Below are positions 3,306 through 37,682 of a stretch of DNA of 64,000 bases, piece by piece. Position numbers and translations under genes: made by a program. The stretch is taken from positions 64,001 through 128,000 of the IMG/VR virus record IMGVR_UViG_3300043432_000485, one strand, 5' to 3'. The notes beneath the pieces were generated by a model, which was not told the origin of the DNA, did not search any database, and worked only from the letters and a program-made list of their open reading frames with translations. The stretch is from a virus. Its lineage: Duplodnaviria > Caudoviricetes. Positions within the stretch are counted from its first letter, which is position 1; each line of letters begins with the position of its first letter.

Positions 3306-4190
3306 TCAGACCTGGAGCCACGTGGAACGATGCATCCATGGCTCCAGGGCATGCAAGAAGATCCCGACCGCCTTACGCCATTTCTCCTGATTGTGCTTGG
3401 CCAAGACCTCGAACAGTCCTTGGCCAAGCATCGAGAACTCGGGGGTGAGAGCACGGGGAATTACGACCTTCCTCTTCGCTCCCCTCGTGTAGAGCGCCAG
3501 TAACTCCGGGAGTCGTTTTTGAATGTCGTCTCGGGTGGCCGGAGCATCTTCTAGATCAGGATCTCCGGTCCGTTCGTATTCCAAGGCCATGTCCCGGATG
3601 TGCCGGAGCTTGTTCTCCCACTTGCGGATCTCATCCTTGAGCACAGTGTAGAACTCGACGTCATCCAGTCGGTGCCGAGTGAACTTGTCCCCCCTGGCAT
3701 TCTGATCGACCTCATCCAGCATACGAGCTGGAGGGACACCGGGTTTTGCCGGCACCCCCGCCGCGTCCAGGACTTCGCCCATGAAATGTTGGGTCCAGTG
3801 AGTCAGCTCATGCTCGACTGTTTCCACGTCAGGCCCGGATGAAAGGACTGTTGGGAACAGCTCGATCAACCTAGTCCCATGGTTGCGACCACCGACGGCT
3901 TGGGATTTGGGTTTGAACTGGACCTTCACAGTCAAGGAGACCGGTAGGACTGAGTCCAAAGCTTCCTTCAGACTAGACATGCGAGGATAGTACCGCCACC
4001 CTTGCAAGGTATGATCGGTGACCTCGAATGTCTTAGAGACAACGTTCTTGGGCTTCTTGGCCCCTTTTCTCTCGGCCCACACGCCAGTGAGCCAATCGAG
4101 GATGTCCTGTAGCAAGAGAGGCGGGACCGCCACTAGTCCGGCATGTCTCAGGAACCTGTCCAGCACAACCTGGGAAGAGACCGTGTCCAT
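3306..4190 (-). CDS. putative zincin-like metallopeptidase, possibly virion-internal
   Basis: HELTH (HExxH) plus downstream HRLDDVEFY; N-terminal VVLDRFLRHAG tag. Confidence 0.55.
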   Translation of the reverse strand: MDTVSSQVVLDRFLRHAGLVAVPPLLLQDILDWLTGVWAERKGAKKPKNVVSKTFEVTDHTLQGWRYYPRMSSLKEALDSVLPVSLTVKVQFKPKSQAVGGRNHGTRLIELFPTVLSSGPDVETVEHELTHWTQHFMGEVLDAAGVPAKPGVPPARMLDEVDQNARGDKFTRHRLDDVEFYTVLKDEIRKWENKLRHIRDMALEYERTGDPDLEDAPATRDDIQKRLPELLALYTRGAKRKVVIPRALTPEFSMLGQGLFEVLAKHNQEKWRKAVGIFLHALEPWMHRSTWLQV

Positions 4191-6391
4191 CAGTCGTCCA
4201 GCTTGTCGATGATGGTGCCGTCTTTCATGTACGCGGGCTCCATCCCCGGAGCCAGGTACTGATTGCTCAGCGTGCTGGGTTCGTGCCCGAGTTCCTCTGC
4301 AACCTCTTCCAAGGCCTCTTCGAACTCGGCCTTGAGCTTCTCTTCCTTATCCTTGGGGTCAGACGGGAGAGTGCCTTTACGCGCCTTCTTGAGGGCCTTC
4401 TGCATGAGACTGTTGGCACTTAATCCGCGCAAGTCCTTGGCTGTGATCTCAAATGGCTCAAGGTACTCATTCACCTTGGCGGCCGTTATCGTTACATCGT
4501 CATTCGAGAACAGGCAGCCATCCTTGCCATCGGCTTCTTTGTATGCCTGACGCAACGCCGATAGGATAGCAGGGGTTGACACGGTCTTCTCGTGTTTCAC
4601 TCCGGACTTCCCCACGTACTTGATGGCCGCGCTCCCGGACCCCAACGTGATGTGGCTCTTCTTCCAGCCAGTCACCCCGTAGTGGGGATCACCTGAATCG
4701 TTCTTCTCACCCTTGGCTGACTCCTCGTTGCCCACTCGTTCATGGGTCTCGTCAATCAAGGCAACCGCCAAAGCAACCATTCTAGTTTCGGGGTCCTTTG
4801 CCTTCAGGTCCGACTTGTACTTGGCACGCAGCTTGTCCACCTTGCCACTGAATTTCTCCAGACGCTCGGCCTTGTCATTGTTCCGCTTGGAGACGGCCTT
4901 GTCAGAGTAGACATAGACGGTAGTCTTCCCCTTGCCGTTGGCCTTAGGGACTTCCTTCTTCTCCGTGTACTTGGCCAGCACCACATTGGGCAGATCAGCC
5001 GGACTCAACTCCAGGTTGCCGTCCAACAGCGCATCGGCCATCGAGTCATTGTCGTCCCAGTTGAAAGCTCGGCCCTCGCTAGGCAAGTTGGCCGGCACAC
5101 CGGTGAACCGCTCCAGCACTTTGAGAGAGATGTTGAGTGCGTTTCGGTAGCGTGATAGGACTTTCTCAGCCTGGCTCGCTGTCCTGACTCCAGGAAGGAT
5201 CATCTGCAACCAGTGCAACACCAATGGGTCAACGGTGCGGGGGCCATAACCAACCAACATCCCGATTGCTTCACAGAAAGCCTCCTCAGGATTCTTACCG
5301 GCATACCCGGTGATTGGATTCTGAGGGACGGTGAACACCTTGCCAGCCGCGAGTGCCGCCTCGAACTCTTCCCTAGATTGGATGTCCCTGGAGGACCGGT
5401 CATGGTTGCGCCCCAGCAGGTCCATCTGGATCGCGAGCGTTGGATCCTTGTCCTTCAGTAGCTCTGGCATTTGAAACAGCCAAGCCCCCTTGGGCCAAAT
5501 TTCCAATGCTCGTTGAGCGTCAAAGGGTCCATAGTTACCCCTGACGGCAGTGTTCCAGAACTCCTGGTCTGAGCCACTAAGATAGACACGATACAAGTGA
5601 TGCCCCATCTCATGGGCTATCACGTGAGCCATCTCGTTTCCGTGCTTGTAATCCCCAAAGGCGGACATGATGATCTCGATATGGTCACCCTTGTAGATCC
5701 CGCCCTCATCAAGCTTACGCAGGTACGCGATCAGCTTGATCGGCAGCATAGTCTTCAGCATCAGCGGAAGCACCTGTTGAGCCCGCTTCTTGAAGATTTT
5801 CAGGCCCTCTCGGAAGCGCTCCATATACTCGGCTTGACGCTCTTGATTGGACTCATAGTCGTAACCCACCACCGTGACAGTGAACCCCTCGATAGTGACC
5901 TTCTCCTGGTCCGGTATCTTTGCAGAGAACCCAGGCTTCTTGGTCACGCGCTGGTAGTACTGCAGGCACTCATCGAAGTCCTTCCAGAATACTCGCGCTT
6001 TGCCCTTGATCCGGGTGGCCCACTTCTCACTCTTGGTACTCAGAGTGTAGAGAGCCGCTCCCTCGGACATACTGTCGTACTCACCTCCCACCGTCGGTAG
6101 AGGGAAATCCAGTTCGATGTAGAAACCCCAAGCTGACTTGCGCAGCTTCTTGTCAATGTACTGCTTGTCGCTGTCTGACAGGTCTTCACTGTACTTGAAG
6201 TCATGGTTCAAGAAGTGATCGAAGAACACCTCGTTGAAGTTGCGCTTGAACGTCTTGACTGCATCCCTAAGGAGAGCCCCGTCCTGGTAGGTCTTGACCC
6301 TCGGGACGTTCTTCATCAAGGTCAGGAAGTCCTTGCGCAGCTTCTCGATGTAGGGTGAATCGAGGGTGATCTCTTTGGCCGTCTTGTTCAC
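4190..6391 (-). CDS. fusion of HExxH metallopeptidase and DNA topoisomerase IB
   Basis: HEMGH and ITGYAGKNPEEAFCE in the N-terminal half. The C-terminal part has TopoIB residues HERVGN (R), VGKSG (K), KDLRGLSAN (R) and LGHEPSTLSNQYL (H, Y). The GTG at 6391 overlaps the upstream TGA (GTGA). Confidence 0.82.
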   Translation of the reverse strand: MNKTAKEITLDSPYIEKLRKDFLTLMKNVPRVKTYQDGALLRDAVKTFKRNFNEVFFDHFLNHDFKYSEDLSDSDKQYIDKKLRKSAWGFYIELDFPLPTVGGEYDSMSEGAALYTLSTKSEKWATRIKGKARVFWKDFDECLQYYQRVTKKPGFSAKIPDQEKVTIEGFTVTVVGYDYESNQERQAEYMERFREGLKIFKKRAQQVLPLMLKTMLPIKLIAYLRKLDEGGIYKGDHIEIIMSAFGDYKHGNEMAHVIAHEMGHHLYRVYLSGSDQEFWNTAVRGNYGPFDAQRALEIWPKGAWLFQMPELLKDKDPTLAIQMDLLGRNHDRSSRDIQSREEFEAALAAGKVFTVPQNPITGYAGKNPEEAFCEAIGMLVGYGPRTVDPLVLHWLQMILPGVRTASQAEKVLSRYRNALNISLKVLERFTGVPANLPSEGRAFNWDDNDSMADALLDGNLELSPADLPNVVLAKYTEKKEVPKANGKGKTTVYVYSDKAVSKRNNDKAERLEKFSGKVDKLRAKYKSDLKAKDPETRMVALAVALIDETHERVGNEESAKGEKNDSGDPHYGVTGWKKSHITLGSGSAAIKYVGKSGVKHEKTVSTPAILSALRQAYKEADGKDGCLFSNDDVTITAAKVNEYLEPFEITAKDLRGLSANSLMQKALKKARKGTLPSDPKDKEEKLKAEFEEALEEVAEELGHEPSTLSNQYLAPGMEPAYMKDGTIIDKLDD

Positions 6392-6891
6392 TGGGTGCCA
6401 CCAATTCTGCGCAGGTCCCGCAGCGCTGCCTTCAGCGACGGCCAGCCCATGTCCTCGCACCAAACGGATCCGCTGCGGTGCAAGGATTGGAACCGCTGCG
6501 GCCCGGACCCCATGTCCTGGATCCGGCACATCCCATCCTCGCTAGCCCAGACCGTTATCCCCGCGGGATCATCGTCCTCGACAAATTGGGAGGCCTGGGC
6601 CGTGCGGTATCGGGAGGCAACCGCCGCCTTCTTCTTTCGAAGCTGCTCGGTTTCCTCATCGTAGATCTTCTTGAACTTGGCCGAATCTTCCTCATTCATA
6701 AGCCGATAAGGTAGTAGATTCCTAGTCTTAGACTTCTTCCGCCCCTTGGGGACGGGCTCTATCTCTACCTTGAGGGTCTCCCCTTCACGGCGCACGTCCG
6801 TGATGATGCCCGCCCGGTTCTTGAACCGTCCGAACCACACGAACATGCCCGGCTTCGGGTCAGGGATCTTGATCGTGGTTTCTTCGGTCAT
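6388..6891 (-). CDS. hypothetical protein with V-x-x-R-Y tag
   Basis: 167 aa; SH3-like beta-rich N-terminus; internal AAVASRYRTA. Confidence 0.65.
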   Translation of the reverse strand: MTEETTIKIPDPKPGMFVWFGRFKNRAGIITDVRREGETLKVEIEPVPKGRKKSKTRNLLPYRLMNEEDSAKFKKIYDEETEQLRKKKAAVASRYRTAQASQFVEDDDPAGITVWASEDGMCRIQDMGSGPQRFQSLHRSGSVWCEDMGWPSLKAALRDLRRIGGTQ

Positions 6892-6927
6892 CCTGATAGG
6901 ACCTTTGATAAGAGCACTACTCCAGAG

Positions 6928-7248
6928 TCAGAACCAGATCTCGGTGATCTCTAGGTCAGGTACACCGACTGGCACCCGGATCAACCCGTAGGGAATGACC
7001 GCCCTCGCTTCCAGCATTGAGTCCGAGCGGATCCTAGGTTCCGTGGCTGTCCGGATCTGACCCGTAGGGGACACTTGCCAGTGCCGCACCACGAAGGACA
7101 GGTACGGATTGGTTTCCCTGTGGACCACCCAGATATTGGTGGCTCCACAGGAGTCCGTTCGTACCCTCCACTCGGCTGGGATCTGGGTACCAAGAGGGCC
7201 TACGATGGCTCTCACCCATCTAGGCTTGTATGGCTGCCGCGGCGACAT
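6928..7248 (-). CDS. hypothetical protein
   Basis: Likely start MSPRQPYKPRW at 7248; fills the gap below the DHH gene. Confidence 0.5.
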   Translation of the reverse strand: MSPRQPYKPRWVRAIVGPLGTQIPAEWRVRTDSCGATNIWVVHRETNPYLSFVVRHWQVSPTGQIRTATEPRIRSDSMLEARAVIPYGLIRVPVGVPDLEITEIWF

Positions 7249-8278
7249 TGGACTCGTATCTTCCAAGAGCAGACGCAAACAGGGAGTAAGGATCCTGGCT
7301 TCCAGTTCTTGGGTCAAACTGTATAGCGAAGCCTGCAGCCTTAGTATGACCGCCACCGCCCAGTGACTTGCAGAAAGATGCGCAGTCGAAGTCGGTGTGG
7401 GATCTGACTGAGAATACGACTTTGGCGACTCCATCTGCCTCGATGCCCACGTAACCGAAGCCGACAACCAGGTCAGCCTCCCGCCCGAGCAACTCAGCCG
7501 CGTCACTAGCGATGGGGGAATGGCCCGAGAACAGCTTCACCCGGGTGCCACGGGGTGTGGTGAAACCGTAGGCACCCTCGACGGCGCGCTTGACCGTCTT
7601 CTGATGCTTTTCAATCAGAACCTTTCCAAGTGACTTTCGATCCTGCCACAGCTTCAAGTTGGCTTCCTTGAACGGGCGCTTGATGGCCAGCCAGGCTTCG
7701 ATTGGCATGAATCGAAGGGCCTCCACCAGCACGCTGGCATCCCCCCAAAACGGGTCCTTGGTCTGCCAGGTGTCACGCACCCCGGACAGATGCGCGAAAT
7801 GGGCTGCTTCCGCTACCTCGTAGAGTGAGTCCTGTCTCAGCTCGTCAAGGTCATCCTCTTCTGTCAAAGTCCCTGCATAGGCCAAAGCATCAAGGTCCAG
7901 TCGAACTTGATGCAGGGGCAGCCAGACCTCCCGATAGGCCAGCACCGCCCCGCACACTCCGGGATCCGTGACCTCATCACCGAACACCCCATTCTCACCG
8001 AACATCGCTACAACAGCTTTGGCCGTCTTATGATGGTCAAGCACCAGGGCGCCAGCATCAACAAACTCCTGAGCGCGCTCCGGGAGAGGAGAGAAGTCAC
8101 ACCACAGTTGGTTGGGGCCAGGGGTAAACGCCCGGTACTCTGGGGTGTTGTATTGCAGGAAGTGGATCTTCACATCCGGAAGCACATCGTGGATCAAGAT
8201 CGCTGTCGCAACCCCATCCGCACAAGAGTCATGCGTGATGACATCGGTGATAGTCAGTAGCTTGGAGATTGGAATCAT
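7220..8278 (-). CDS. DHH/DHHA1-family phosphoesterase
   Basis: THDSCADG, WCDFS, VLDHH and C-terminal GGGGHTKAAGF. Confidence 0.85.
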   Translation of the reverse strand: MIPISKLLTITDVITHDSCADGVATAILIHDVLPDVKIHFLQYNTPEYRAFTPGPNQLWCDFSPLPERAQEFVDAGALVLDHHKTAKAVVAMFGENGVFGDEVTDPGVCGAVLAYREVWLPLHQVRLDLDALAYAGTLTEEDDLDELRQDSLYEVAEAAHFAHLSGVRDTWQTKDPFWGDASVLVEALRFMPIEAWLAIKRPFKEANLKLWQDRKSLGKVLIEKHQKTVKRAVEGAYGFTTPRGTRVKLFSGHSPIASDAAELLGREADLVVGFGYVGIEADGVAKVVFSVRSHTDFDCASFCKSLGGGGHTKAAGFAIQFDPRTGSQDPYSLFASALGRYESNVAAAAIQA

Positions 8279-8290
8279 AGGTCATAGATG

Positions 8291-8296
8291 TACACC
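8291..8296 (-). promoter_or_regulatory. GGTGTA element upstream of DHH gene
   Basis: 12 nt before the ATG at 8278. Confidence 0.55.
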
Positions 8297-8302
8297 GATA
8301 GT

Positions 8303-8812
8303 TCAACCGAAGTCGTATACTGTCACTGAAACATCTGAGAGTTGTCGGACGATGATGGGCTCAACAGCATCCCAACTTCCCCCACCGAGACCTGTTCCGA
8401 TCCTGGGCATGAACACAGACGCTCCTAGTTGTTTGGCCAACACTGCCACCTTTCCCAAGCACTTTTCCAGAGCCCCATATCGTATGGGTGGGGTCGAATT
8501 AGGTACCGACGATTGGTGCAAAGCTTGGTTGTTTATCCCATAACCAGACTGTGCAATGCAATTCACTACATGAAGGTTAGGCGCGACTTTAATCGCTTGA
8601 ATGTTCCCAAGTTCGAACGCCTGACCCTCCCAGTACTTCTGGCGGAACCACTGTCGATAGGCTGCTTCAGGTTCAGGCCAACGCTTGGAGATTGCAAGTA
8701 CGAATCCGGCGCCCCATCCATTTTTGTCGTTTGACACGTGTACGAGCAGACCGTGTTGCTCAGGGGTTACACCAGGTCTAGTTGCGTCCCCTTTTTTGTA
8801 CGTGATTGCCAT
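8303..8812 (-). CDS. Macro-domain (Appr-1''-p processing / ADP-ribosylhydrolase) protein
   Basis: YKKGDAT, HVSNDKNGWGAGF, VVNCIAQ and MPRIGTGLGGGSW. Confidence 0.85.
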   Translation of the reverse strand: MAITYKKGDATRPGVTPEQHGLLVHVSNDKNGWGAGFVLAISKRWPEPEAAYRQWFRQKYWEGQAFELGNIQAIKVAPNLHVVNCIAQSGYGINNQALHQSSVPNSTPPIRYGALEKCLGKVAVLAKQLGASVFMPRIGTGLGGGSWDAVEPIIVRQLSDVSVTVYDFG

Positions 8813-9963
8813 GCTGTCACCTTCCTACACCAATCTCTGAATTCTGGTATTGTCAGGGTGCGACGCATGAGATTGATGCGCTTGGACACCCATTGAACGT
8901 TGTCTATAGTGTACCCAAGATTATTGTCGATTCGATCAAGAGAGGCGGTCGTGTTATGTCCGGAACTCGCAGACCCGAAATAAATAGGCTCCAGGGACAG
9001 AGCGCAAACTTTTCCTTGGGACTCAAAAAGTGACCAAGCATCCCCTACAGATAGTTGAAACGGTAATCTTCTCCGGGTAGCACTGTCTATATACCCAGCC
9101 CACAGAGAACCCCTAATCTCTCGGAATCCGGTGAATTGCAAGCAGCCACACGATTGAGTTGTGCCCCTTACGATCGAATCCAAGCGAGCCGTGATCACGA
9201 CCCCACAGGCGCACAATGCTTCCGCATAAAGTGCCGCATAGGGCAAAGCTTGACGAGACACAGATAGGATCTTCAAACGACTAAAAGAGGCTCCAATATA
9301 CTTAGAGTACTTTGGCTCCCTCAAGGGCTGTACTTGAATGCTGTCAAGCACTGAAGCCGTACGAAACTCCACGGGATTGGTCACTTGGGCACATAGAGAA
9401 ATAAAAGCGTCTACCGATAGCTTGTGCCTCATCAAGTTGATTGTCTTGTGCGTCCACTGCAGATTACCGATCTCGTACCCTATAGATGAATCCAACCTAT
9501 CCAGTGAGGCGGTGGTTTCCGACGGCTTCGCCACTCTGCCGAATCCGATCTGTACCCCAGACATCTTACACATACGAGATTGAGACTCATACAAATCCCA
9601 ACCATGCTCTATGGAAATATGGAATGCTAGGCCTCTTCTCTCAGCGTCACGGCGATAACCATACCACACTTTGCCCCGCAGTTCCTTGTAGCCTTGATAC
9701 CCTGCATTACGTTCACCGAGACTCTGTTCACCAGCTCGTTCACGATGATAGCAGCCACAGGATACGGTCTTTCCGTGCCGCAAGGCTGCTGTCTTGACAT
9801 CTTTGGTCGTCCCGCAATCACATCTGCACGTAGCTTTGTAGCTCCAAACTCCAGGGCGGTTACCGGGGATGTGCTTCAAAGACAATATGGTCAATCGACC
9901 GAATTTTACACCAATCAGATATTCTGGTGGCCTGGGTTTACTTCCTTGGCGGGGCATACCCAC
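8767..9963 (-). CDS. homing endonuclease, HNH-like, with two tandem modules
   Basis: Two copies of G.KF.RL.I...C.C.CG...T.SCGC...SLDR.D...GY...N.QW; visibly more AT-rich than its neighbours. Confidence 0.8.
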   Translation of the reverse strand: MGMPRQGSKPRPPEYLIGVKFGRLTILSLKHIPGNRPGVWSYKATCRCDCGTTKDVKTAALRHGKTVSCGCYHRERAGEQSLGERNAGYQGYKELRGKVWYGYRRDAERRGLAFHISIEHGWDLYESQSRMCKMSGVQIGFGRVAKPSETTASLDRLDSSIGYEIGNLQWTHKTINLMRHKLSVDAFISLCAQVTNPVEFRTASVLDSIQVQPLREPKYSKYIGASFSRLKILSVSRQALPYAALYAEALCACGVVITARLDSIVRGTTQSCGCLQFTGFREIRGSLWAGYIDSATRRRLPFQLSVGDAWSLFESQGKVCALSLEPIYFGSASSGHNTTASLDRIDNNLGYTIDNVQWVSKRINLMRRTLTIPEFRDWCRKVTAWQSRTKKGTQLDLV

Positions 9964-10009
9964 CAGATACTACAAAACCTTTATTGGATCTCCCATAGTT
10001 ATACAAATG

Positions 10010-10285
10010 TCATCTGAAGCAGGGGTGATTGAGGATGAGCCAAGCCCCCTTCTCGGTCAGCAGGATATTCCCATGATGGTGCCATCCCATCCCCCCACCT
10101 CTGATAAGGCCGTGCTCGGCCAACAATTTGGCCACAGACATAGATTCCTGATCCACGTGTAAGGATAACTGTCGAGGGGGCCGGCCATCCGCTATGACCA
10201 TGTCAGCCAAGGCCCTAAACAGAGCAACTTCTGGGCCTGTCAGGTAAGTGCCATCATCTAAGGTTAGGGCCTCTGCTTCATCCAT
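10010..10285 (-). CDS. hypothetical protein
   Basis: 91 aa ORF with GAGG SD and a GGTGTA element upstream. Confidence 0.6.
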   Translation of the reverse strand: MDEAEALTLDDGTYLTGPEVALFRALADMVIADGRPPRQLSLHVDQESMSVAKLLAEHGLIRGGGMGWHHHGNILLTEKGAWLILNHPCFR

Positions 10286-10293
10286 GAGTACCT

Positions 10294-10689
10294 CTACACC
10301 ATCGGGAACAGGATCTCGAACCGCACGCTTGCCGCCCAGAGCTTCTCCATCATGTCGTGCGTCCCTCGATTCTGGGTTTTCGTCACCGGCCCGGTAGAGA
10401 ACCCATATGCCTTGTCAAGCTTGACTCCGGAGCTATCGGGGTGCTCGGAAGCCAGCATCTTCGCGTTGCGCATGTGACCGGCTGCCTTTCCGAACTCATC
10501 CCACTCCTCAGGGGTCACCGGATACGCTCGAATTTCAAACCCTAGGGATCTGCCCACTCGGTCTGCCGCCTTATCGGCTCCGCGAGCATTGCCGTGGATC
10601 AGAATGGTGTCCTTGGGTAACTTGGACAGGATCCGAAGAATCACCCCTTCCTGCGCCCATTCTCTAGATCCGAAAACCAAGACCTTCAT
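10294..10689 (-). CDS. SLOG-family protein (DUF2493 / YspA-like)
   Basis: MKVLVFGSREW, LIHGNARGAD, W..FGKAAG..RN..M and GT..M. Confidence 0.8.
   Translation of the reverse strand: MKVLVFGSREWAQEGVILRILSKLPKDTILIHGNARGADKAADRVGRSLGFEIRAYPVTPEEWDEFGKAAGHMRNAKMLASEHPDSSGVKLDKAYGFSTGPVTKTQNRGTHDMMEKLWAASVRFEILFPMV
10295..10300 (-). promoter_or_regulatory. GGTGTA element
   Basis: 9 nt before the ATG at 10285. Confidence 0.55.
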
Positions 10690-11141
10690 AGCTGAATGAG
10701 CTTGGCCCTGATGGCATCCAATAGTTCGTTGCGCAGAGCTTGGGTCACGATCTTGTCCCGCTCCGGTTTGGTCCTCGCATACCAGGCATTGATGGTATCC
10801 CTCGACGTGAACCCCTTCAGCTGCTCCATGAGGGTTACCTGGATCTCTTGCTCCTGAAACTGAGCCGGAGCACTCTTGAGGGTTTCAGCAATCGGGCTCG
10901 TGCTGGCCTCGGGAGCTTCCCCTAGCTTGCTGGTCAGGTCAGTGGCCCGCCGCGCCACTTCGATGGACATAGCGAGAGCCTTGATGGCATCCTCTTCTTG
11001 GGCTTTGTTGCCATTGAAGATTGCGTTGAGCACCAGCTTCGTGGACTCAAGGGCATTCATGGCGGCATCGTACTGAGCCTGGGATTTGATGCCGGGGAAG
11101 CCTCGGCGAATCACCTCGGACATGACTTGTTCTGGGGTCAT
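10686..11141 (-). CDS. hypothetical protein
   Basis: 151 aa, helical; 4-bp overlaps with neighbours. Confidence 0.65.
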   Translation of the reverse strand: MTPEQVMSEVIRRGFPGIKSQAQYDAAMNALESTKLVLNAIFNGNKAQEEDAIKALAMSIEVARRATDLTSKLGEAPEASTSPIAETLKSAPAQFQEQEIQVTLMEQLKGFTSRDTINAWYARTKPERDKIVTQALRNELLDAIRAKLIQL

Positions 11142-11353
11142 CTTGATCTCCGGTTCTCTAGGACGCGAGCCAAGGCCATTTCCAGCGCATGGTCACACGC
11201 GATATGGCTGGATGGATGGTCCCCCATAGGAGAACCAACACACCTGATGCAGTGGCATTGATGCCTAGCTTCTTCGATGTACCCCATCAATGCCTTGAGC
11301 CTGAGGAAAAGGGGATCGTTGGGACGCTTGGCGGTTCGGCGCTCTGGTTGCAT
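11138..11353 (-). CDS. small Cys/His-rich hypothetical protein
   Basis: CHCIRC...HIAC; translationally coupled to both neighbours. Confidence 0.55.
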   Translation of the reverse strand: MQPERRTAKRPNDPLFLRLKALMGYIEEARHQCHCIRCVGSPMGDHPSSHIACDHALEMALARVLENRRSR

Positions 11354-12781: not shown

Positions 12782-12791
12782 CCATTCCCTT

Positions 12792-12797
12792 TACACC
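12792..12797 (-). promoter_or_regulatory. GGTGTA element
   Basis: 10 nt before the ATG at 12781. Confidence 0.55.
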
Positions 12798-12834
12798 ACT
12801 ACGGGAGCGTCGGCCCCCGTAGTGGTCATTGCTC

Positions 12835-13506
12835 TCAGCTCAACTGAGAGGAAACCAACGCTGCCACATCCAGGCCTTGAGACGCGAACAAAGCGTCCGC
12901 CTGATTCTTGCCAGACTCGACTAGCAGAACCTCGGGGTCCTTGGCCGGTGCCGGGGTACCGCGCAGCCCTGCCATGATGGCGTCCGGATCGATCTTCGTT
13001 ACCTGGTACCGGCCGCGATCCACCTTCGTGAACACGAGTACGCGGACCACATCGTTGGTGTTCGGGTCACGCAGCGGCTGCCCTTGAGCGTCCCGCACCT
13101 TCACGGTCTGCTGGCTCAGCAACGTGCTGATGTAGCCCCGGACGTTGTTGCTCGTCGGGGAGTAGCCGGCCTTGTCCAAAGCCGTCTCCACTTCACCGGC
13201 GCTCATCGTGTCGTTCCCCATGACCTTGATGATCTTGTCGATCAACGTCATGTCACTCTTGGGCTTGGCGATTGCGGTCTTGGGTTCCTTGGCAGGTTTG
13301 GCAGGAGGTAGAATCGTCTCCTCGATCGGGAACAGGATGAGGAACTGCTGATACTTGCTGTTCAGCTGTTCGAACTCCTCCTTCGCGGTGGCGAGAGCGG
13401 TGGTAGCTGCGGCGAGCTGTTGCTCAGCCTTATCGAATCGGCCCTTGGCGGCAGCAACTTCAGTGGCCAGGGCTTTCTGTGCTTTTTGAAAAATCTCGTT
13501 TGACAC
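12835..13506 (-). CDS. coiled-coil plus winged-helix putative DNA-binding protein
   Basis: Heptad N-terminus, Pro/Lys linker, then LIDKIIKVMG..MSAGEV..AL...GY...RG.ISTLL; GTG at 13506 after GGAG. Confidence 0.6.
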   Translation of the reverse strand: MSNEIFQKAQKALATEVAAAKGRFDKAEQQLAAATTALATAKEEFEQLNSKYQQFLILFPIEETILPPAKPAKEPKTAIAKPKSDMTLIDKIIKVMGNDTMSAGEVETALDKAGYSPTSNNVRGYISTLLSQQTVKVRDAQGQPLRDPNTNDVVRVLVFTKVDRGRYQVTKIDPDAIMAGLRGTPAPAKDPEVLLVESGKNQADALFASQGLDVAALVSSQLS

Positions 13507-13619
13507 GGGCAATCTCCATCTACATATGGGGAACGACAGGGGAATCATTCCCAGGACCAGTGGGTTATAGTTGCAACCCCCAGGGCGGCAACAGATCTAG
13601 AGGGACTTTCTGAGACTCT

Positions 13620-13862
13620 CTAGGGCTTGACCGGGAACTCTCGGTCAATGTCCACGTCATGAATTACACCGAGTCGACGCAAGTGTGCTTCGGCTTTCCC
13701 ATCAGCCAGCGCTCTTTTTAGCCCTTCCAGCCGGCGATCCCCGATGGTCTCCGCCCGCTGAATCGTGCGCCGCAAGAGCAGCTGCCAGTCAGCCTGCCGT
13801 TCCGGAGCCTGAATCCGATTCTGTGGTCTCTGATTGGTTGCCCCTAGCCGTCTCGATGCCAT
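13620..13862 (-). CDS. hypothetical protein
   Basis: 80 aa with AAGGAG SD; overlaps the 3' end of the upstream gene. Confidence 0.5.
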   Translation of the reverse strand: MASRRLGATNQRPQNRIQAPERQADWQLLLRRTIQRAETIGDRRLEGLKRALADGKAEAHLRRLGVIHDVDIDREFPVKP

Positions 13863-14202
13863 TCGTGCTCTCCTTGAGGATCTGGTCCTGTATCTGGGAC
13901 TCCAACAAACGAATCGATTCCATGGACGCCACTGGCAGCCCGATGAAGCCGTGGATGAGACGCATGGTGACCTCGCGCTGAAGAGCCAGCTCGGCTTTCA
14001 GCGCGGAGTTCTCGATCTCCACCTGACGCAAGACCGAGATCGTGTCGTCCACCTTGGACGCCAGCTTCTCGATCTCAGCCAGATATGGCCGGAGCCGGTC
14101 CGCCACATCGGAGAACTCATGCAGGGCGGCCATCGTCTTGACGACATGGCTAGGAAGCTTCTTGTCAGAAGCCGCTTGGGCTCGTTTCATGTGTCTGTTC
14201 AT
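13789..14202 (-). CDS. coiled-coil hypothetical protein
   Basis: 137 aa helical ORF in the operon. Confidence 0.65.
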   Translation of the reverse strand: MNRHMKRAQAASDKKLPSHVVKTMAALHEFSDVADRLRPYLAEIEKLASKVDDTISVLRQVEIENSALKAELALQREVTMRLIHGFIGLPVASMESIRLLESQIQDQILKESTNGIETARGNQSETTESDSGSGTAG

Positions 14203-14223
14203 ATTTGATCTGGCTGTTGAGAG

Positions 14224-14616
14224 TTACTGCGGGAATGGAGGTTGACCACGGAAGATCGAGTAGAAGGGGATCGAGCCGGAGTTGTGCGGCTGATTGAGCA
14301 AGGCTTGCTCAATGTCGTTCTGCTCTGGCGTCGGGAGACTCGGGACCGTCCGCGCCATCTCCAGCAGGTCCGGGTCAGAAGTGACGGTCAACAGGTCAGC
14401 GCGAGCCTGTGGGTCTCGTTCGAGAGTGTTGATGACCTGCTCCTTAGTCATCGTGTCCAGCATGCAAATGCCCGGCGCCGTGACATCGTTGGGGCTGTCC
14501 CCTCTCTCTACCCATACATTCTTGGACCCAGGGACGTAGCGGTCACATTTTGTGACGGGTGCTACAGGGCACGTCGGGGGACCAGAGCAAGGGGTATTCT
14601 GACAAGAACAGGACAT
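14224..14616 (-). CDS. Cys-rich N-terminus hypothetical protein
   Basis: MSCSCQNTPC...C...C; GAGG SD and GGTGTA upstream. Confidence 0.65.
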   Translation of the reverse strand: MSCSCQNTPCSGPPTCPVAPVTKCDRYVPGSKNVWVERGDSPNDVTAPGICMLDTMTKEQVINTLERDPQARADLLTVTSDPDLLEMARTVPSLPTPEQNDIEQALLNQPHNSGSIPFYSIFRGQPPFPQ

Positions 14617-14626
14617 GGTGTACCTC

Positions 14627-14632
14627 TACACC
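14627..14632 (-). promoter_or_regulatory. GGTGTA element
   Basis: 10 nt before the ATG at 14616. Confidence 0.55.
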
Positions 14633-14642
14633 AAGCCGTAGC

Positions 14643-15089
14643 TCAAGAAGATTCTTGCACCCAATCAGCCCGGATCAAAAGCCGCGTCTCCGGATGCCTC
14701 TCCGCACAGGAAAGCGCCACACGCCAGTACAGGATCCGGTTTTTTATCCGCAAATGCTGCATCACCGGCTCCACGGGACCCTGGCAAGTGGGACAGAGCT
14801 GCGCTCGAATATGCGCAATCACACGGTCGACGCTAGGGAGGGGGATAGCCTTCTCCACATCCTGATCAGTCAGGTCGTCTGAATCCCCATAGAGTTCATC
14901 CAGAACCCCAGGAGGGAGGCCCGCCCCAACTTCACTATCCCCTTCAAGCTTAGCTTTTTCCATCCACCACTCCTTGGTGCGGTTGAACTTGGTGTTGATC
15001 CGAATCGGCTTCAGGCTGTGCCCTAGGGCTCTTGGCTTGTCAGGACCTTGATACGGCCCATCTTCCCACCACTCATCTCGTTTAGTCAT
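14643..15089 (-). CDS. hypothetical protein with C-terminal zinc ribbon
   Basis: CPTC...C..H near the C-terminus. Confidence 0.6.
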   Translation of the reverse strand: MTKRDEWWEDGPYQGPDKPRALGHSLKPIRINTKFNRTKEWWMEKAKLEGDSEVGAGLPPGVLDELYGDSDDLTDQDVEKAIPLPSVDRVIAHIRAQLCPTCQGPVEPVMQHLRIKNRILYWRVALSCAERHPETRLLIRADWVQESS

Positions 15090-15310
15090 TGGTTACCGGC
15101 CGGCAGACTCTTGATAGCCACCACAGGAAGAGTTTCCATGGCCAGCCGAGCATGCACTTCAAAGAGTGCCACAAGGGCTTTACGGTCTCTCACCACCGGG
15201 GCGCTTCTCCAACCGCAGCTGCAGACGATGCGATCCGCATTGTCATGGTAGTAGAAACCACCATCCCCAAAGGTGCACGGTTGAAAGCTGGTCACTTCGT
15301 GGTTCGACAT
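15086..15310 (-). CDS. small hypothetical protein
   Basis: 74 aa with CSCG; GGTGTA upstream. Confidence 0.6.
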   Translation of the reverse strand: MSNHEVTSFQPCTFGDGGFYYHDNADRIVCSCGWRSAPVVRDRKALVALFEVHARLAMETLPVVAIKSLPAGNQ

Positions 15311-15319
15311 GGCCCCTAC

Positions 15320-15325
15320 TACACC
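15320..15325 (-). promoter_or_regulatory. GGTGTA element
   Basis: 9 nt before the ATG at 15310. Confidence 0.55.
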
Positions 15326-15328
15326 GAC

Positions 15329-16156
15329 TCAGCGGATTACCGGGAGACTCTTGGTTGAGTTGCGCTTCTTCACGGCCAGTCCCTGATCCCCTGCATAGCA
15401 GTACTGACAGCCGAAAGAGCACGTCTCGTTGATGGTGAACGGGTCCACCATCAGCACGCAGCCGCAGCGCTCATAGGCTGGGCTCGCACCGGGGAAGTCC
15501 TTAGGCGGTACGCAAACGTCCACGGTGAAGCGCTGATCAGTTGCGTCAATGAAGGACAGGTCGTCCTGGCACAGCGCGATCTGGACCCCCGCCTGAGCCG
15601 CCTCATCGGCAAGCTCATTCAACAGCGCGAAGCGTTGCTCCTTGGTGCGCGTCTCGGGGATCCGATCATTGGGCTGCAAGAACGACACGAACACTTCTTT
15701 GAGCCCAGCGGTAGAGGCGTATCCGAGCAAGATCTTGAAGCGCTCCAGCACGACCCAATCCGGCAACAGGGGGATGGGGCTGAACCTCCAACGCACCAAG
15801 GAGAACGCCTTAGCGGTCTCGATCAAGAGATGCCCGGCATCCTCCAACGACGGGGCGCCGCGCTCGACTTCAGACCAGCCGGTGGCCGTCACGTGAACCG
15901 ACACATCGTAGTCTTGGAGCCTGAGCTGAGCCGCGATCAGGTTCCTGGGGTCCTTGGTCCAGAATACCAGGCCCAGCGTGTCCTCGGGGCGCAAGGACCA
16001 GACTGAGGGCACCCCGGTGCGCGGGTCGAACGCGATCATCTGGCCGAAAGCCAGGCACTGCTCGAACCATTGCCACTTTTGAGTTGATCCAGGAAGATCA
16101 GTCCAACGTGAGAGGCTGTAAGGTATCCCTTCGACCCGGCCGCTTCGTAAAATCAT
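15329..16156 (-). CDS. DUF1848-family (radical-SAM-like) protein
   Basis: N-terminal SRWTDLP, VFWTKDP, WRFSPI and C-terminal CGC...TCSFGCQYCYA. Confidence 0.8.
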   Translation of the reverse strand: MILRSGRVEGIPYSLSRWTDLPGSTQKWQWFEQCLAFGQMIAFDPRTGVPSVWSLRPEDTLGLVFWTKDPRNLIAAQLRLQDYDVSVHVTATGWSEVERGAPSLEDAGHLLIETAKAFSLVRWRFSPIPLLPDWVVLERFKILLGYASTAGLKEVFVSFLQPNDRIPETRTKEQRFALLNELADEAAQAGVQIALCQDDLSFIDATDQRFTVDVCVPPKDFPGASPAYERCGCVLMVDPFTINETCSFGCQYCYAGDQGLAVKKRNSTKSLPVIR

Positions 16157-16806
16157 GATCTATGCCTATCGGCTACGAGCCTACACAAGGTAAGAAACTC
16201 TTCATAAGGTAAATCAAGCTTGGCCAAGTTGCAGTGCTTACATGCGGTTACTACATTCTCTGGTGTGTAACCAAGTGCTGAGTCCACCCTATCTATCCCA
16301 TTGAGAGGTACCGTCTCAGTACGCAGCCCTTTTGGCTTACGTGCAGAGAATGGAAGCCGCCCACAATAATGGCAGCTACCGGTAACCAAAGTCGATACAT
16401 CGGCTTCGGTAAGACGAAACTCCCTGCCAAACTTGTTGGCTGATTGACGGTAGCTCACATAGCAGAATCTGATTGCAGCCTCTTTGTCCGTTCTCCTTGA
16501 CATAATGCTTTTTACGCCAAGTGGCTGCATTTTTTGCGCATTTAGAGTCTGTCTGACTGACCTCGGCAGGGTGGCGGATACCTTGCTCCCAACTATTTGA
16601 ACCGACTTCATATTCTCTGTCCTCTTACAGCCACAGGAAGTCGTGTGACCGTTCCTAAGATCGGAACTAGAAACAACCACCTCTGTAGAGCAATCGCACT
16701 TGCACAGCCACTGAGCTTGGCGCCTCCCTCTAATGGGAGCTTGTTCAAGGACGAACAGATGCCCGAACTTAGCACCTTTTACGTCTATGGGTTTACGACC
16801 GCCCAT
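16153..16806 (-). CDS. homing endonuclease, HNH-like
   Basis: GAKFGHL.V...CKCDC...GHTTSCGC; CHYC; GIDRVDSALGY...NVV.AC..CN. Confidence 0.8.
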   Translation of the reverse strand: MGGRKPIDVKGAKFGHLFVLEQAPIRGRRQAQWLCKCDCSTEVVVSSSDLRNGHTTSCGCKRTENMKSVQIVGSKVSATLPRSVRQTLNAQKMQPLGVKSIMSRRTDKEAAIRFCYVSYRQSANKFGREFRLTEADVSTLVTGSCHYCGRLPFSARKPKGLRTETVPLNGIDRVDSALGYTPENVVTACKHCNLAKLDLPYEEFLTLCRLVADRHRS

Positions 16807-16849
16807 GGGCCAAGGTTAGCCCGAAATCGGTCAGATGTACAACCCTAGC

Positions 16850-17278
16850 CTACACTTTGTGCGTTTTTGGCTGATACCCGTGACTGCACGGTTTGACCGT
16901 GTACCGCAGCGCGTAACCGATCGATTGCAGGACCTGGAGGGTAACGGAAGCTGAAGCCGCTGCAGAGCCGTCGACTCCGAGGGGGTACTCCACGTCCACC
17001 CTGATTTGCCGGCGCAAGCCTGACTTCTCCTGGGCGGCCGTAAGGGGTCCGGAGGACTGGTGCCCCACAACCTTGAGGGGCACCGCAACGTCGAAGTCCT
17101 GTCCCTCAATCTGGATGTCCAAGGACTCCCCGTTAATTGAACGGATCACATCAATGTTGAAAGGTTTCGCAATTTTGCGGCCCTCCTCGAACAGCACGGA
17201 CATGACCTTGGTCTGAGGGCCGGCGGCGGTGCGGTCAGCGTACTTGCGCGCGACTTCTTCTGCCAAGCCCTTGCTCAT
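16850..17278 (-). CDS. hypothetical protein with N-terminal tag
   Basis: Real start is MSKGLAEEVARKYADRTAAG at 17278, with a 4-bp overlap with the upstream gene. Confidence 0.6.
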   Translation of the reverse strand: MSKGLAEEVARKYADRTAAGPQTKVMSVLFEEGRKIAKPFNIDVIRSINGESLDIQIEGQDFDVAVPLKVVGHQSSGPLTAAQEKSGLRRQIRVDVEYPLGVDGSAAASASVTLQVLQSIGYALRYTVKPCSHGYQPKTHKV

Positions 17279-17778
17279 GACCCCTCGATGAAGCGGGCGG
17301 CCACCGCGGCGCCCACGAACCTGTTCGTCACACGCTCGGAAGCCGTCTTGGGCGCCGTGTGGGTGTACCGGGGCTCGAATTCCTTGGCCAGGTAGTTGAT
17401 GTAGTCGGCCAGGTACTTGCAGACTTGAGCCGGTGTGCCCGTCTTGGCCCGGAACTTCTTGGGCTGCTTCTCTCCGTGCCCCGCGTAGAGGGAGATGCTC
17501 ATCTCTACCTTCACCTTGCCGGTCGGGGCCGGCGCGTTCTCGTCCTTCTTGTCCCACCCGTCCACGAAGAACAGCGCCCGGTTGTTCTCGGCCTCGGCAC
17601 CACCGCCCGCCGAACCCACCCCAGGAGGCAAGTTGACGAAATTGATGGACATCATGTCGGATTGACCGAGGGAGTTACGACGCACCTTGACTTGGCGGCC
17701 GTTTGCTTTGGTCAATTTTTCCAACTCGGCGGAAAAATCGGCAGAACTGAGAATTTCGGCAGCAGCTTTGTTGGTCAT
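17275..17778 (-). CDS. hypothetical protein with C-terminal tags
   Basis: Ends KTASERVTNRFVGAAVAARFIEGS. Confidence 0.65.
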   Translation of the reverse strand: MTNKAAAEILSSADFSAELEKLTKANGRQVKVRRNSLGQSDMMSINFVNLPPGVGSAGGGAEAENNRALFFVDGWDKKDENAPAPTGKVKVEMSISLYAGHGEKQPKKFRAKTGTPAQVCKYLADYINYLAKEFEPRYTHTAPKTASERVTNRFVGAAVAARFIEGS

Positions 17779-17808
17779 ACCCTTACTAGACAGTATGCCA
17801 TCAAAACT

Positions 17809-19080
17809 CTACCCATGCGCAACCGATTTTCGCATCACGACAGCGGAACCGGGTTTGGCCACAGCTTCCGCGGTGATCCGGATGCTGGCGATGTCCTGGT
17901 CCTCTGGGGCCTCGTAGCTGTAGGGCTTTAGCACCTGTTCTACCACCGTTCGAAGCGCTCGGGCGCCTGTGCTGTATTGCTTGGCCTTGCGAGCGATCGC
18001 CAACAGCGCTTCGGGGTCAAACTGCAGGTCAATGCCGTCCAGGGAGAAGAGGGCTCGGAACTGCTTGCACAGGGAATGGTCAGGCTTGACCAACACGTCG
18101 ATCATCTCGGCCTCGGTCAGCTCAAAGGTGCTGCTCACGATGGGGAGCCGGCCCACGATCTCCGGAATGAGTCCGAACTCTTCTAGGTCCTGTACCGTGA
18201 CTTGGTGGTAGAGATCCGACTTCTCGAATTTCTTGCGGCCTTCCTGCCCAAAACCCATCCCGGAACTCTTGTTGAGCCGCTGCTCGATCAATGGCTCGAT
18301 CCCGGCGAAGCTGCCCGCACAGATGAACAGGATGTTGGTGGTGTCTATGACGTCGATCGTAGACATTCCGGAGACGGCCCTGGATCCTTGACCCCGAGGC
18401 ACCGGTACCTTGGAACCCTCCAGGAGCTTCAATAGGGATTGCTGCACCCCTTCCCCGGTAACGTCCCTGTATCCGGATGCGCTGCGCCCGCTCTTACGCG
18501 CGAGCTTGTCGAACTCGTCCAGGAACACAATGCCCCATTGGGCACGCTCAACATCCTGCTGAGAGTCGGCAAACAGTCCCTGAAGGATGGATTCCACGTC
18601 ATCCCCAACGTATCCAGCTTGCGTGAGGCGGGTAGCGTCGGCGACAAAGAAGGGGACGTCCAGCATGCGGGCGATCGCCCGAGCTAACAAAGTCTTTCCC
18701 GAACCGCTCGGTCCGAGCAACAAGATGTTCGACTTCTCGATCTCCACGGCCTCCCCATCGAGCAGGATGGCCCCGTTTTGCTGGTGCTCAACCTCTCGGC
18801 GGCGGTAGTGCCGATATACCGCGATCGCCAGCTCGCGCTTAGCCTCTGCTTGCCCGATGACCTGACGATCAAGTAGGGCGGTGATCTCCCGGGGCTTCTT
18901 GAGGACCTTCTGCGCCGGTTGCCCAGCCGCGGACTTCAGCTCTTCCTTGCGGAGAGTCTCCGCGGATCTGACGATGCACGTGTTGCAGATGTTGGATCCG
19001 TCCGGGCTCCCGATGAGGTTTTTGACCTCATTACGGGGGCGCCCACAGAAGTTGCACCGCTTGCTTGGATCCTGAGCCAT
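17809..19080 (-). CDS. clpX: ATP-dependent Clp protease ATPase subunit ClpX
   Basis: C4 zinc finger (CNFC..CNTC), GPSGSGKT, GYVG pore-1, LDEFDK, GEGVQQ, FICAGSF, MGF ClpP-docking loop and GARALR. Confidence 0.95.
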   Translation of the reverse strand: MAQDPSKRCNFCGRPRNEVKNLIGSPDGSNICNTCIVRSAETLRKEELKSAAGQPAQKVLKKPREITALLDRQVIGQAEAKRELAIAVYRHYRRREVEHQQNGAILLDGEAVEIEKSNILLLGPSGSGKTLLARAIARMLDVPFFVADATRLTQAGYVGDDVESILQGLFADSQQDVERAQWGIVFLDEFDKLARKSGRSASGYRDVTGEGVQQSLLKLLEGSKVPVPRGQGSRAVSGMSTIDVIDTTNILFICAGSFAGIEPLIEQRLNKSSGMGFGQEGRKKFEKSDLYHQVTVQDLEEFGLIPEIVGRLPIVSSTFELTEAEMIDVLVKPDHSLCKQFRALFSLDGIDLQFDPEALLAIARKAKQYSTGARALRTVVEQVLKPYSYEAPEDQDIASIRITAEAVAKPGSAVVMRKSVAHG

Positions 19081-19089
19081 TCCCCATAT

Positions 19090-19095
19090 TACACC
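19090..19095 (-). promoter_or_regulatory. GGTGTA element upstream of clpX
   Basis: 9 nt before the ATG at 19080. Confidence 0.55.
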
Positions 19096-19097
19096 GA

Positions 19098-20333
19098 TCA
19101 GGAGAGGATCGGGTCAAGCATCGCCTTCAAAGGGGCAGAAAGCTTCCCGATGGCCAAGAAGGATACCATCTCTGCAAAGTTCTCGTCTGGGTGCGTGCCA
19201 GCGTAGCCGGTCACGAAGCTCATGTCTGGGTCAGCCTTGGGTACTGGCAGCTTCATCATCCGCAGCCAGTTGTCCAGAGGCGTGGAGAAACGGTGGGTCG
19301 TGTTGCCCTCTTCCATCCAATTCACAACGACTTTGCGCCGACTGATCTCCACCTTGGAGACGGTCAGCGTCTTGCCCTTGTAGTCGACCTTGTCCCCGGC
19401 CTTCGGGTATAGCTCGGAAGGAATCGGAGGCGGCTCGCTGGAATGGCGAAGCTTCCGGTACATGTCGTTGATCATCGAGCCGCGGCCCGAGAGGAACTTG
19501 TGCTGCAGTCGATGTGCAAGCTCATGGCAAACGATGCGCACGGTATCCCAGTTGTCCGGGGTGTTGGAGCGCACGAACATCTCATCAGCCGATGGCAGAT
19601 AGAATGCAGCCACGTTCTTCTTGTTGTTCACCGTCTGGCTGATGTGGATGTCCCCGTAACACACCTTGCCCAGCCCGATGGAACGCATGGCAGCCTCGGC
19701 CTTGGTGACGAGGTCAACGGCCTTCGCCATCACACTCTTGTCGAACCCGCCGGTGTTGATCAACGTGAACGAACCCGCGGGATATTTGACCTGCTCGGCT
19801 AGCTCTGGGTCCGAGTTGAGCTTCCCCTTGGCGATCGCGGCCTCAGCGGCACCTACTTGCTTGCGGAACTCCAAGCACACCTGCAGATACTTCTGCAGAT
19901 ATTCGAGATCAGCATCGTAAGTCCCGCTGTTGCTCTTGATCCGGATGCTCAGCTTCTTCTTCGTCCAGAAACGAGCCGCGCCCTCGATGGTCTTGCGCAG
20001 CTGAGCGGGCAGAACGTAGGATTGCAAGATGGCCAGGAACAGAAGCATCCCAGTGGTCTGAATTCTCCGGTACTGATACCCGGCTTGAAACTCACCCTTG
20101 ATCTCGTAGCGCATCCGGGAGGTTTGGGTAAGCTCCGCTGATAGCGCTTTGGATGTGTCGAAGTCCTGACGCTTCATCGCGTCAATGAATCCGGTGAGCT
20201 TCTCGATGTCCTTCTTGGCGGGCTCCTCGTTTTGCGTATAGCGCTCTACGTCGAACTTGAACTTCACCAGATCCGATGTGACGTCGGCGATGGCTTTGGC
20301 GGACAGGAAGCGAGCTACGATTCTGTCGTTCAT
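19098..20333 (-). CDS. putative zincin metallopeptidase with N-terminal tag
   Basis: MNDRIVARFLSAKA; HELAH; VTGYAGTHPDENFAE, matching the peptidase half of 4190-6391. Confidence 0.65.
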   Translation of the reverse strand: MNDRIVARFLSAKAIADVTSDLVKFKFDVERYTQNEEPAKKDIEKLTGFIDAMKRQDFDTSKALSAELTQTSRMRYEIKGEFQAGYQYRRIQTTGMLLFLAILQSYVLPAQLRKTIEGAARFWTKKKLSIRIKSNSGTYDADLEYLQKYLQVCLEFRKQVGAAEAAIAKGKLNSDPELAEQVKYPAGSFTLINTGGFDKSVMAKAVDLVTKAEAAMRSIGLGKVCYGDIHISQTVNNKKNVAAFYLPSADEMFVRSNTPDNWDTVRIVCHELAHRLQHKFLSGRGSMINDMYRKLRHSSEPPPIPSELYPKAGDKVDYKGKTLTVSKVEISRRKVVVNWMEEGNTTHRFSTPLDNWLRMMKLPVPKADPDMSFVTGYAGTHPDENFAEMVSFLAIGKLSAPLKAMLDPILS

Positions 20334-20336
20334 CGC

Positions 20337-33529: not shown

Positions 33530-33531
33530 TT

Positions 33532-37672: not shown

Positions 37673-37682
37673 CGATGACAGC

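Follow-up and report, generated by a model that had tools for sequence, protein, structure and literature searches.

A short portable peptide of huge phages resembles an address label, with the loading of enzymes into the virus head as its most plausible purpose

Short peptides which address proteins to a partner are known from several systems. The cargo peptides of encapsulins are read by a shell protein with an HK97 fold. The encapsulation peptides of microcompartments are amphipathic helices on enzymes and are read by a shell protein as well. The XB tail of SspB (LRVVK) binds as a strand, and ClpX, as Flynn and co-workers are said to have reported in 2003, picks substrates and adaptors through short terminal peptides. 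In phage T4 the capsid-targeting sequence (CTS) is the sole feature common to diverse internal proteins; it addresses them to the scaffolding core and also carries foreign proteins (PMC3012670). For polyvalent proteins, which possess zincin peptidase domains, packaging and injection have been proposed (Iyer et al. 2017, PMC5512222). Here we examine a stretch of 64,000 nucleotides, called the window below, which represents bases 64001-128000 of a single 203,362-bp contig (IMG/VR record IMGVR_UViG_3300043432_000485). Unrelated proteins encoded in it, at least a dozen over the whole contig, carry a short peptide which we designate tag A. It resembles an address label, most plausibly one for loading enzymes into the virus head. 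Full-text literature searches yielded no description of tag A.

The CTS of the T4 proteins IPI-III and Alt is all that these diverse, fast-evolving and in many cases anti-defence proteins have in common; tag A is likewise a short conserved peptide on otherwise unrelated proteins. It has, however, no sequence likeness to MKTYQEFIAE. In T4 the CTS is found at N-termini only, and cleavage at a gp21 site removes it, whereas tag A also occurs at C-termini, at domain junctions and in tandem, and no constant cleavage site accompanies it. The T4 head consists of gp23, the head considered here probably of a small 290-amino acid (aa) capsid protein of the HK97 type (phrog_2522, with a weak match to PF05065). 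PF07068, the family of the T4 gp23 type, was not matched, the control genomes being likewise unmatched.

Like the cargo peptides of encapsulins and microcompartments, tag A is terminal or inter-domain, sits on a flexible linker, is predicted to be helical and is attached to unrelated cargo. The encapsulin shell protein is about the size of this phage's capsid protein. Unlike in encapsulins, where the consensus is of the GSL type, the container would be a DNA-filled virion and binding to the capsid protein is putative. The repertoire of effectors with zincin domains is similar to that of polyvalent proteins (PMC5512222), and fusions in which a NUDIX, HAD or zincin domain is joined via a tag to a type IB topoisomerase (TopoIB) resemble small polyvalent proteins. 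Polyvalent proteins are thought to be head-bound via fused MuF-type or structural domains, whereas here mostly separate genes each possess their own short tag.

Tag A is a real, portable and clade-wide peptide

The source record is classed as a virus with about 43% completeness, and a protein identical to one of this genome is also encoded on a 340,944-bp contig. Neither a capsid gene nor ClpP was found in the 203-kb fragment. The relatives of this phage are uncultured phages of 300-510 kb. Beyond the 203-kb fragment we scanned LR745208 (485 kb), which has roughly 56 proteins in common with this genome, the complete genome G005 (380 kb, with terminal repeats) and sixty 20-kb loci from related contigs (1.2 Mb).

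A preceding sequence-only reading had described the element as V-x-x-R-[F/Y], often with R/K-T-A nearby. All seven instances quoted there are present in the sequence, all on the minus strand. The claim that this pattern exceeds background is borne out only for a longer form. In this genome the bare pattern is marginally enriched (27 matches versus 18.4 +/- 4.3 in shuffled proteomes). Because such regular-expression counts were unconvincing they were replaced by a position matrix from foreign sequences, trained on 88 distinct N-termini of foreign homologues of the 411-aa protein of gene 19098-20333. The consensus of the 88 N-termini, a peptide some 11 residues long, reads [L/M/S]-A-x-[R/K]-V-[A/V]-x-R-[F/Y]-[L/I]. 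Scans were run on gene calls from our own script; a codon-based caller skipped or shortened some homing endonuclease genes. Backgrounds were shuffled proteomes and reversed sequences, the latter retaining composition and helical periodicity.

In its extended form the motif is strongly enriched, and the proteome-wide scan which had been proposed earlier yields a frequency above background with a matrix trained on foreign sequences. This genome contains nine matches of at least 12 bits (1.0-1.2 expected from shuffles) and five of at least 16 bits (0.03 expected). LR745208 has nine matches of at least 14 bits against 0.9 expected, G005 has 12 of at least 13 bits against 1.07, and the sixty related loci, with the training family excluded, have 61 against 3.85. 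Enrichment amounts to 7 to 200 times in the 203-kb fragment and to about 10 to 27 times in the 380- and 485-kb relatives. Forward matches exceed reversed ones in all four sequence sets, i.e., 8 versus 1 (this genome, at least 13 bits), 12 versus 2, 10 versus 3 and 61 versus 12. Most matches are close to protein ends. Within about 20 residues of a terminus lie 10 of the 14 best matches of this genome, and the 61 matches in related loci are 40 N-terminal, 9 C-terminal and 12 internal, which makes 49 terminal matches where 1.0 is expected. At a threshold of 10 bits 13 proteins of this genome are tagged, six of them inside the window. One of the 13, a hydrophobic protein of 86 aa at genome 190700-190960, probably represents a false positive.

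The conservation of the tag is equally evident in the family of the 411-aa protein. A search with this protein retrieved 120 homologues on huge-phage contigs, of which about 100 keep the tag at the N-terminus; some tags are tandem, and one homologue is also tagged at its end. In an alignment of 102 sequences the Arg of the tag is conserved in at least 90%, on par with H270, E271, H274 and E384, the zincin signature, which is invariant in all 102 and marks the family as predicted peptidases. The codons of the conserved V, R and F differ freely between tags, hence selection acts on the peptide, i.e., at the protein level.

The members of the family of the 167-aa protein of gene 17275-17778 share a well-conserved core of about 130 residues, and the tag is always outside of this core. 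It is C-terminal in the window protein and three others, N-terminal in about 25 members and doubled in one. In about seven members an N-terminal Y-S-Y-D-R-R, which we designate tag B, replaces tag A, and the remainder have no tag. Similarly, the J-domain protein carries tag B in the window, whereas its G005 orthologue begins with two copies of tag A. The nearest relative's orthologue of a 142-aa window protein (gene 16850-17278) starts with tag B and tag A in succession. Such behaviour fits a modular label which is not part of a fold.

Tag B itself, Y-D-[F/R]-R or in its fuller form YSYDRR, has nine matches where 1.8 are expected, four of them terminal versus 0.4 expected. It is located at the N-termini of the J-domain protein and of a 252-aa protein and at the C-termini of a UvrD-like helicase and a Dps-like protein; further tag B gene positions in the genome are 169479-170237, 165461-168895 and 181251-181901. 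Tags A and B are exchangeable in two protein families.

Could the likeness be chance, or a leftover of common descent among paralogous zincins? The marginal enrichment of the bare pattern would agree with the former, and the fact that five carriers are related zincins with the latter. Against this, four independent sequence sets are enriched, about 7-fold to 200-fold at the strictest cut-off, the carriers include folds other than zincins, and the tag switches terminus within one family. We find this explanation scarcely credible, and for practical purposes enrichment and portability refute it. The core of the earlier proposal, one short tag on unrelated proteins which a common partner would read, is strongly supported by enrichment, independence of position and clade-wide conservation. 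The matrix scan also agrees with the earlier statement that the replication and large tail proteins are without it.

AlphaFold2 (AF2) predicts the tag as a short helix set apart from the protein body. The model of the 411-aa protein has a mean confidence score (pLDDT) of 94.9; helix 2-10 is at about 60, residues 11-17 form a linker, and the body starts at residue 18 with values >95. In the 167-aa protein of gene 17275-17778 twelve linker residues separate a core of pLDDT about 90 from a helix at the C-terminus (146-166, pLDDT 63-71). Hence linkers of 7-12 residues connect tag helices predicted with low confidence (about 60-70) to cores predicted with >90. Structure comparison yielded no significant neighbour for either model. 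Gluzincin peptidases, i.e., collagenase, M1 peptidases and lethal factor, are the best though weak matches (E of at least 0.1) to the model of the 411-aa protein. In the 167-aa family (P0123-P0175) the alpha/beta core is predicted with confidence and includes an AGGGAEAENN loop, which is invariant, and a K-Y-L-A-D-F-L-N helix; the Protein Data Bank holds no structural neighbour of it.

The neighbouring R/K-T-A is a peculiarity of this lineage. [KR]TA[AS] lies within 14 residues of 4 of 15 tags here, where about 0.07 are expected, and of 0 of 23 and 0 of 22 tags in two relatives; this part of the sequence-only reading therefore holds for this lineage and fails in the relatives. The tetrapeptide [K/R]-T-A-[S/A] is found beside tags at window positions 5173-5185, 17338-17349 and 17222-17233 and at the C-terminus of genome gene 33074-34111. 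In G005 the presumed scaffold contains three copies of this tetrapeptide, and a further copy is close to the N-terminus of the capsid protein. [KR]TA[AS] is over-represented in head-module proteins of two relatives, and the capsid N-terminus varies (KTAA, KTAS, KTPQ). As a site for a maturation protease it was set aside: it is tag-adjacent in this lineage only, has no genome-wide enrichment and is a weak lead only.

These data bear on the possibility that the tag is purely a processing site at which phage zincins or the prohead protease cut polyproteins, with no targeting involved. Half of the carriers are zincin-like peptidases, tags occur at domain junctions of multi-domain proteins, and zincin domains were proposed to autoprocess polyvalent proteins (PMC5512222). 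However, most tags are positioned 3-16 residues from the end of single-domain proteins. A cut there would free nothing, yet these tags are conserved like catalytic residues. Further, AF2 leaves the zincin's own tag undocked (pLDDT about 60). We consider a pure processing site highly improbable, and the processing role which had been suggested finds no support: outside this lineage no conserved cleavage motif is present beside the tag, and tags at the extreme termini are conserved like the catalytic residues. The zincin as the reader of its own tag was likewise rejected, since with an alignment of 102 sequences AF2 does not dock the tag on the body. Tat signals, the PP1 RVxF motif and clamp-binding motifs were dismissed by reasoning, as register or context are unsuitable.

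Carriers in the window and in related phages

All window features are on the minus strand. Two gene models were corrected. A 779-aa open reading frame was shortened to the GTG start at 6391, which forms a GTGA overlap with the upstream stop and leaves 733 aa, and a 235-aa frame to the ATG start at 17278 (ATGA overlap), which leaves 142 aa.

The 294-aa protein of gene 3306-4190, with an HExxH motif in the form HELTH, has tag A at its N-terminus (SSQVVLDRFLR, residues 5-15; 4146..4178; 13.6 bits). The gene at 4190-6391 encodes the 733-aa protein, in which an HExxH domain is followed by two tags (residues 403-430) and then by a Topoisom_I domain (PF01028, residues 501-708). Here the tags form the linker between zincin and TopoIB. 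Copy 1 with the preceding RTAS comprises residues 403-417 (5141..5185; 14.8 bits); copy 2, SLKVLERFTG, comprises residues 421-430 (5102..5131; 11.3 bits) and is positioned about 70 residues ahead of the Topoisom_I domain. A weaker, internal tag in a 167-aa protein of gene 6388-6891 (residues 87-98, KKAAVASRYRTA; 6598..6633) is borderline at 10.1 bits.

A second group surrounds the phage ClpX gene. The 142-aa protein of gene 16850-17278 carries a Lys variant of tag A at the N-terminus (residues 5-19, LAEEVARKYADRTAA; 17222..17266; 10.8 bits); in the nearest relative this gene is found downstream of the 411-aa zincin gene as its conserved partner. The other 167-aa protein, of gene 17275-17778, ends in two tandem tags after KTAS (residues 144-167; 17278..17349), as seen with matrix and AF2. 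ClpX follows at 17809..19080, with zinc finger, AAA_2 and ClpB_D2-small domains; with tagged genes on either side it is a candidate reader. The 411-aa zincin-like protein of gene 19098-20333 starts with NDRIVARFLSA (residues 2-12; 20298..20330; matrix and AF2). Tag B is represented by ASYDFRE at the N-terminus (residues 2-8; 38866..38886) of the 399-aa J-domain protein of gene 37690-38889.

Five of the ten HExxH proteins of this genome are tagged, and the other five remain below 3 bits. The three tagged proteins which had been called peptidases do possess the motifs HELTH, HEMGH and HELAH and are of the zincin type as judged by sequence; some homologues of the 411-aa protein match PF15890. Other carriers in this genome are the zincin-TopoIB fusion, a protein of the S-adenosylmethionine (SAM) lyase family (PF23780), a 93-aa protein tagged at the C-terminus and a protein of 345 aa, rich in Lys, Pro and Glu and tagged at both ends, which contains a hydrophobic Gly/Ala-rich stretch. 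TopoIB is tagged in every fusion context, whether fused to zincin, HAD or NUDIX or standing alone. In the relatives the arrangements are HAD-tag-TopoIB-tag, NUDIX-tag-TopoIB-tag-X-tag, TopoIB-tag-tag-X and TopoIB with a C-terminal tag. The tag was not found in the TopoIB of a cultured Xanthomonas jumbo phage. Further carriers in relatives are a 2H/Acb1-like phosphoesterase with three copies of the tag and a J-domain protein. Most carriers have no match in Pfam and PHROGs. The idea that the 502-aa tagged zincin is fused to a tail protein in LR745208 was rejected, as the 1763-aa protein in question lacks an HExxH motif and any real match.

The window also encodes thymidylate synthase, DHFR, DNA polymerase A, a DnaB-like helicase, an SNF2 helicase and very large tail-type proteins. 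Genes for homing endonucleases of the HNH/EndoVII type with atypical codons are interspersed among the tagged genes (8767-9963, 16153-16806, 21089-21970). About 17 non-structural genes have a GGTGTA box at a distance of exactly 15-16 nt upstream of their start codon. The box is present in 23 upstream regions versus 2.65 expected and almost absent from the structural half of the genome. Window sites are 19081-19100 (before ClpX), 445-467 (before thyA), 8279-8300 and 37673-37690, with about 13 more starts in genome 0-105 kb. The box may be a promoter or initiation signal of one temporal gene class.

Candidate readers of the tag

We regard tag A as a docking or address label which is read by one conserved partner, with a probability of roughly 0.85, and infer a single reader. 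That the label is a head-loading signal, the reading which we favour, is a conjecture from gene context, and to this part we assign a probability of about 0.4. A short amphipathic tag helix on a flexible linker of 7-12 residues, at the N-terminus, the C-terminus or a domain junction, would bind to the inside of the assembling head, i.e., to the capsid protein or the scaffold core. Host-directed enzymes and disordered internal proteins would become enclosed in the head and later be injected together with the DNA, in a manner comparable to the T4 CTS or the cargo peptides of encapsulins. The putative cargo enzymes are zincin peptidases, the type IB topoisomerase, SAM lyase, the 2H phosphoesterase, NUDIX and HAD fusions and the J-domain protein. 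This repertoire resembles the injected effectors of polyvalent proteins.

Which gene context is meant? G005 and LR745208 each possess a single cluster of co-oriented head genes, and tagged genes are located inside it, 6-19 kb from the capsid gene. They encode a TopoIB, a very basic, probably disordered 132-aa protein and a 1196-aa low-complexity protein which is tagged at residue 72 and is homologous to the doubly tagged 345-aa protein of this genome. Between G005 and LR745208 the identity of the capsid protein amounts to 83%, where the next protein attains 56% and the median orthologue 36%. Over 85 loci it is 72-100% identical and by far the most conserved protein of the clade. Thus a near-frozen capsid protein fits as the expected reader of a near-frozen tag.

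Capsid genes are located at L179:1507-2376 (G005), L029:16418-17293 (LR745208) and in loci L098-L182, with a median orthologue identity of 36-45%; the conservation is unusually strong for a phage capsid protein. The G005 head-module genes 191530-194889 and 204280-207237 (L192, L193) contain inteins with LAGLIDADG endonucleases, as do the polymerase of LR745208 and the gene adjoining its capsid gene.

Several observations weigh against head loading. The carriers are known here from genes alone and not as particle proteins. The six tagged genes of the window reside among genes for nucleotide metabolism and replication, in the GGTGTA half of the genome, and the clustering of tagged genes is tighter near ClpX than near the head genes. 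Another conserved motif forms the end of the presumed scaffold proteins, thus the tag does not mimic the end by which the scaffold itself would bind the capsid. The tag is not regularly accompanied by a protease site, and the J-domain protein as well as the UvrD-like helicase and the Dps-like protein with tag B would be unusual head cargo. A complex prediction of the G005 capsid protein (alignment of 95 rows) with the first 40 residues of the tagged 132-aa protein scored 0.01, a result which speaks neither for nor against head loading.

The proximity to ClpX invites another explanation. The tag could tether proteins to, or mark them for, the phage or host ClpX unfoldase, either as a degradation or remodelling signal which times the lifespan of potentially toxic enzymes or as a dock which joins tagged zincins to ClpX in a split FtsH-like protease. 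As had been noted from the sequence alone, tagged genes are on both sides of ClpX: four genes of the window follow one another, namely the tagged 411-aa gene, ClpX and the tagged 167-aa and 142-aa genes. A conserved module, which consists of a CN-hydrolase, a tagged protein, ClpX and a tagged zincin, is present in five arrangements (window 16850-21092 and loci L051, L046, L065 and L079). In each of the seven ClpX loci examined, at most a few genes separate ClpX from tagged genes. In L007, the nearest relative, no ClpX gene lies between the zincin and 142-aa genes, which adjoin each other. The ClpX gene is present in 11 of 13 related records. Like the SspB XB tail and other peptides which tether to ClpX or act as degrons, tags are short basic-hydrophobic peptides at the ends of unrelated proteins, with a partial R-V-V likeness to LRVVK, and the phage encodes ClpX beside tagged genes.

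However, R-[F/Y], the most conserved and invariant residues of the tag, have no counterpart in the XB tail, and tag A is predicted to be helical. The 167-aa protein next to ClpX is not SspB-like; a fold search for an SspB-like adaptor beside ClpX yielded no significant match. Many tags are internal and out of reach for a pore degron. Much of the adjacency is inherited synteny and does not represent independent events. Tags persist in two complete genomes without a phage ClpX, LR745208 and G002 (301 kb, terminal repeats). Of the proposed dedicated phage-ClpX signal, then, the tag-rich ClpX neighbourhoods in seven genomes stand, whereas the two complete genomes without the gene argue against dedication. 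The adjacency is real and not obligatory. Since host ClpX could serve as reader where the phage copy is missing, we retain a label for ClpX as an explanation, albeit an unlikely one.

Its most elaborate form is improbable. Here tag A would tether lethal-factor-like zincins and their substrates to a near-core ClpX and so create a split FtsH-like machine, a programmable protease independent of ClpP. Still bolder is the idea that ClpX threads tagged proteins into the prohead.

The window ClpX is 55-78% identical to homologues on huge-phage contigs and about 58% to apparently bacterial ClpX. It keeps the GYVG pore motif, has an MGF loop in place of the IGF tripeptide for ClpP docking and has lost the RKH loop, with SRA in place of the E. 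coli RKH; these loop changes suggest an altered choice of substrates. In two relatives the gene is split by an insertion, probably an intein (open frames of 781-795 aa). A lack of the zinc finger in phage ClpX was not used as an argument against ClpX; it is maybe an artefact of the gene start, and DNA-level matches cover residues 6-419.

Lastly, the label could dock to some other conserved hub. Candidates are the portal or the scaffold core, the well-conserved actin-like protein encoded in the neck operon, DnaK or RNA polymerase of the host, and also nucleic acid or the membrane. Portability and invariance across the clade require nothing more than a conserved reader. With 54-67% identity the actin-like protein ranks second or third in conservation within the clade, and actin-fold cytomotive proteins bind amphipathic helices of their partners, as in ParR-ParM. 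The occurrence of tags A and B in one genome, even at one N-terminus, hints at a richer sorting system. On the other hand, there is no positive sign for any particular hub. Membrane-targeting helices on unrelated proteins are normally without a fixed V..R[FY] register, and the hydrophobic face of the tag (V, A, F, L) is small. We therefore view another hub as possible, if rather doubtful.

Significance for huge phages

Huge phages possess hundreds of accessory genes for which a rule of deployment is sought. One portable peptide could predict a shared destination. Tag A is present on 2-5% of the proteins across the clade, including likely anti-defence enzymes and a topoisomerase. If ClpX were the reader, this would represent a new viral way to steer a host-type unfoldase. 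Should the head prove to be the destination, the tagged genes would together make up a catalogue of injected effectors for uncultured phages, and the tag would be a handle for packing foreign proteins into very large capsids.

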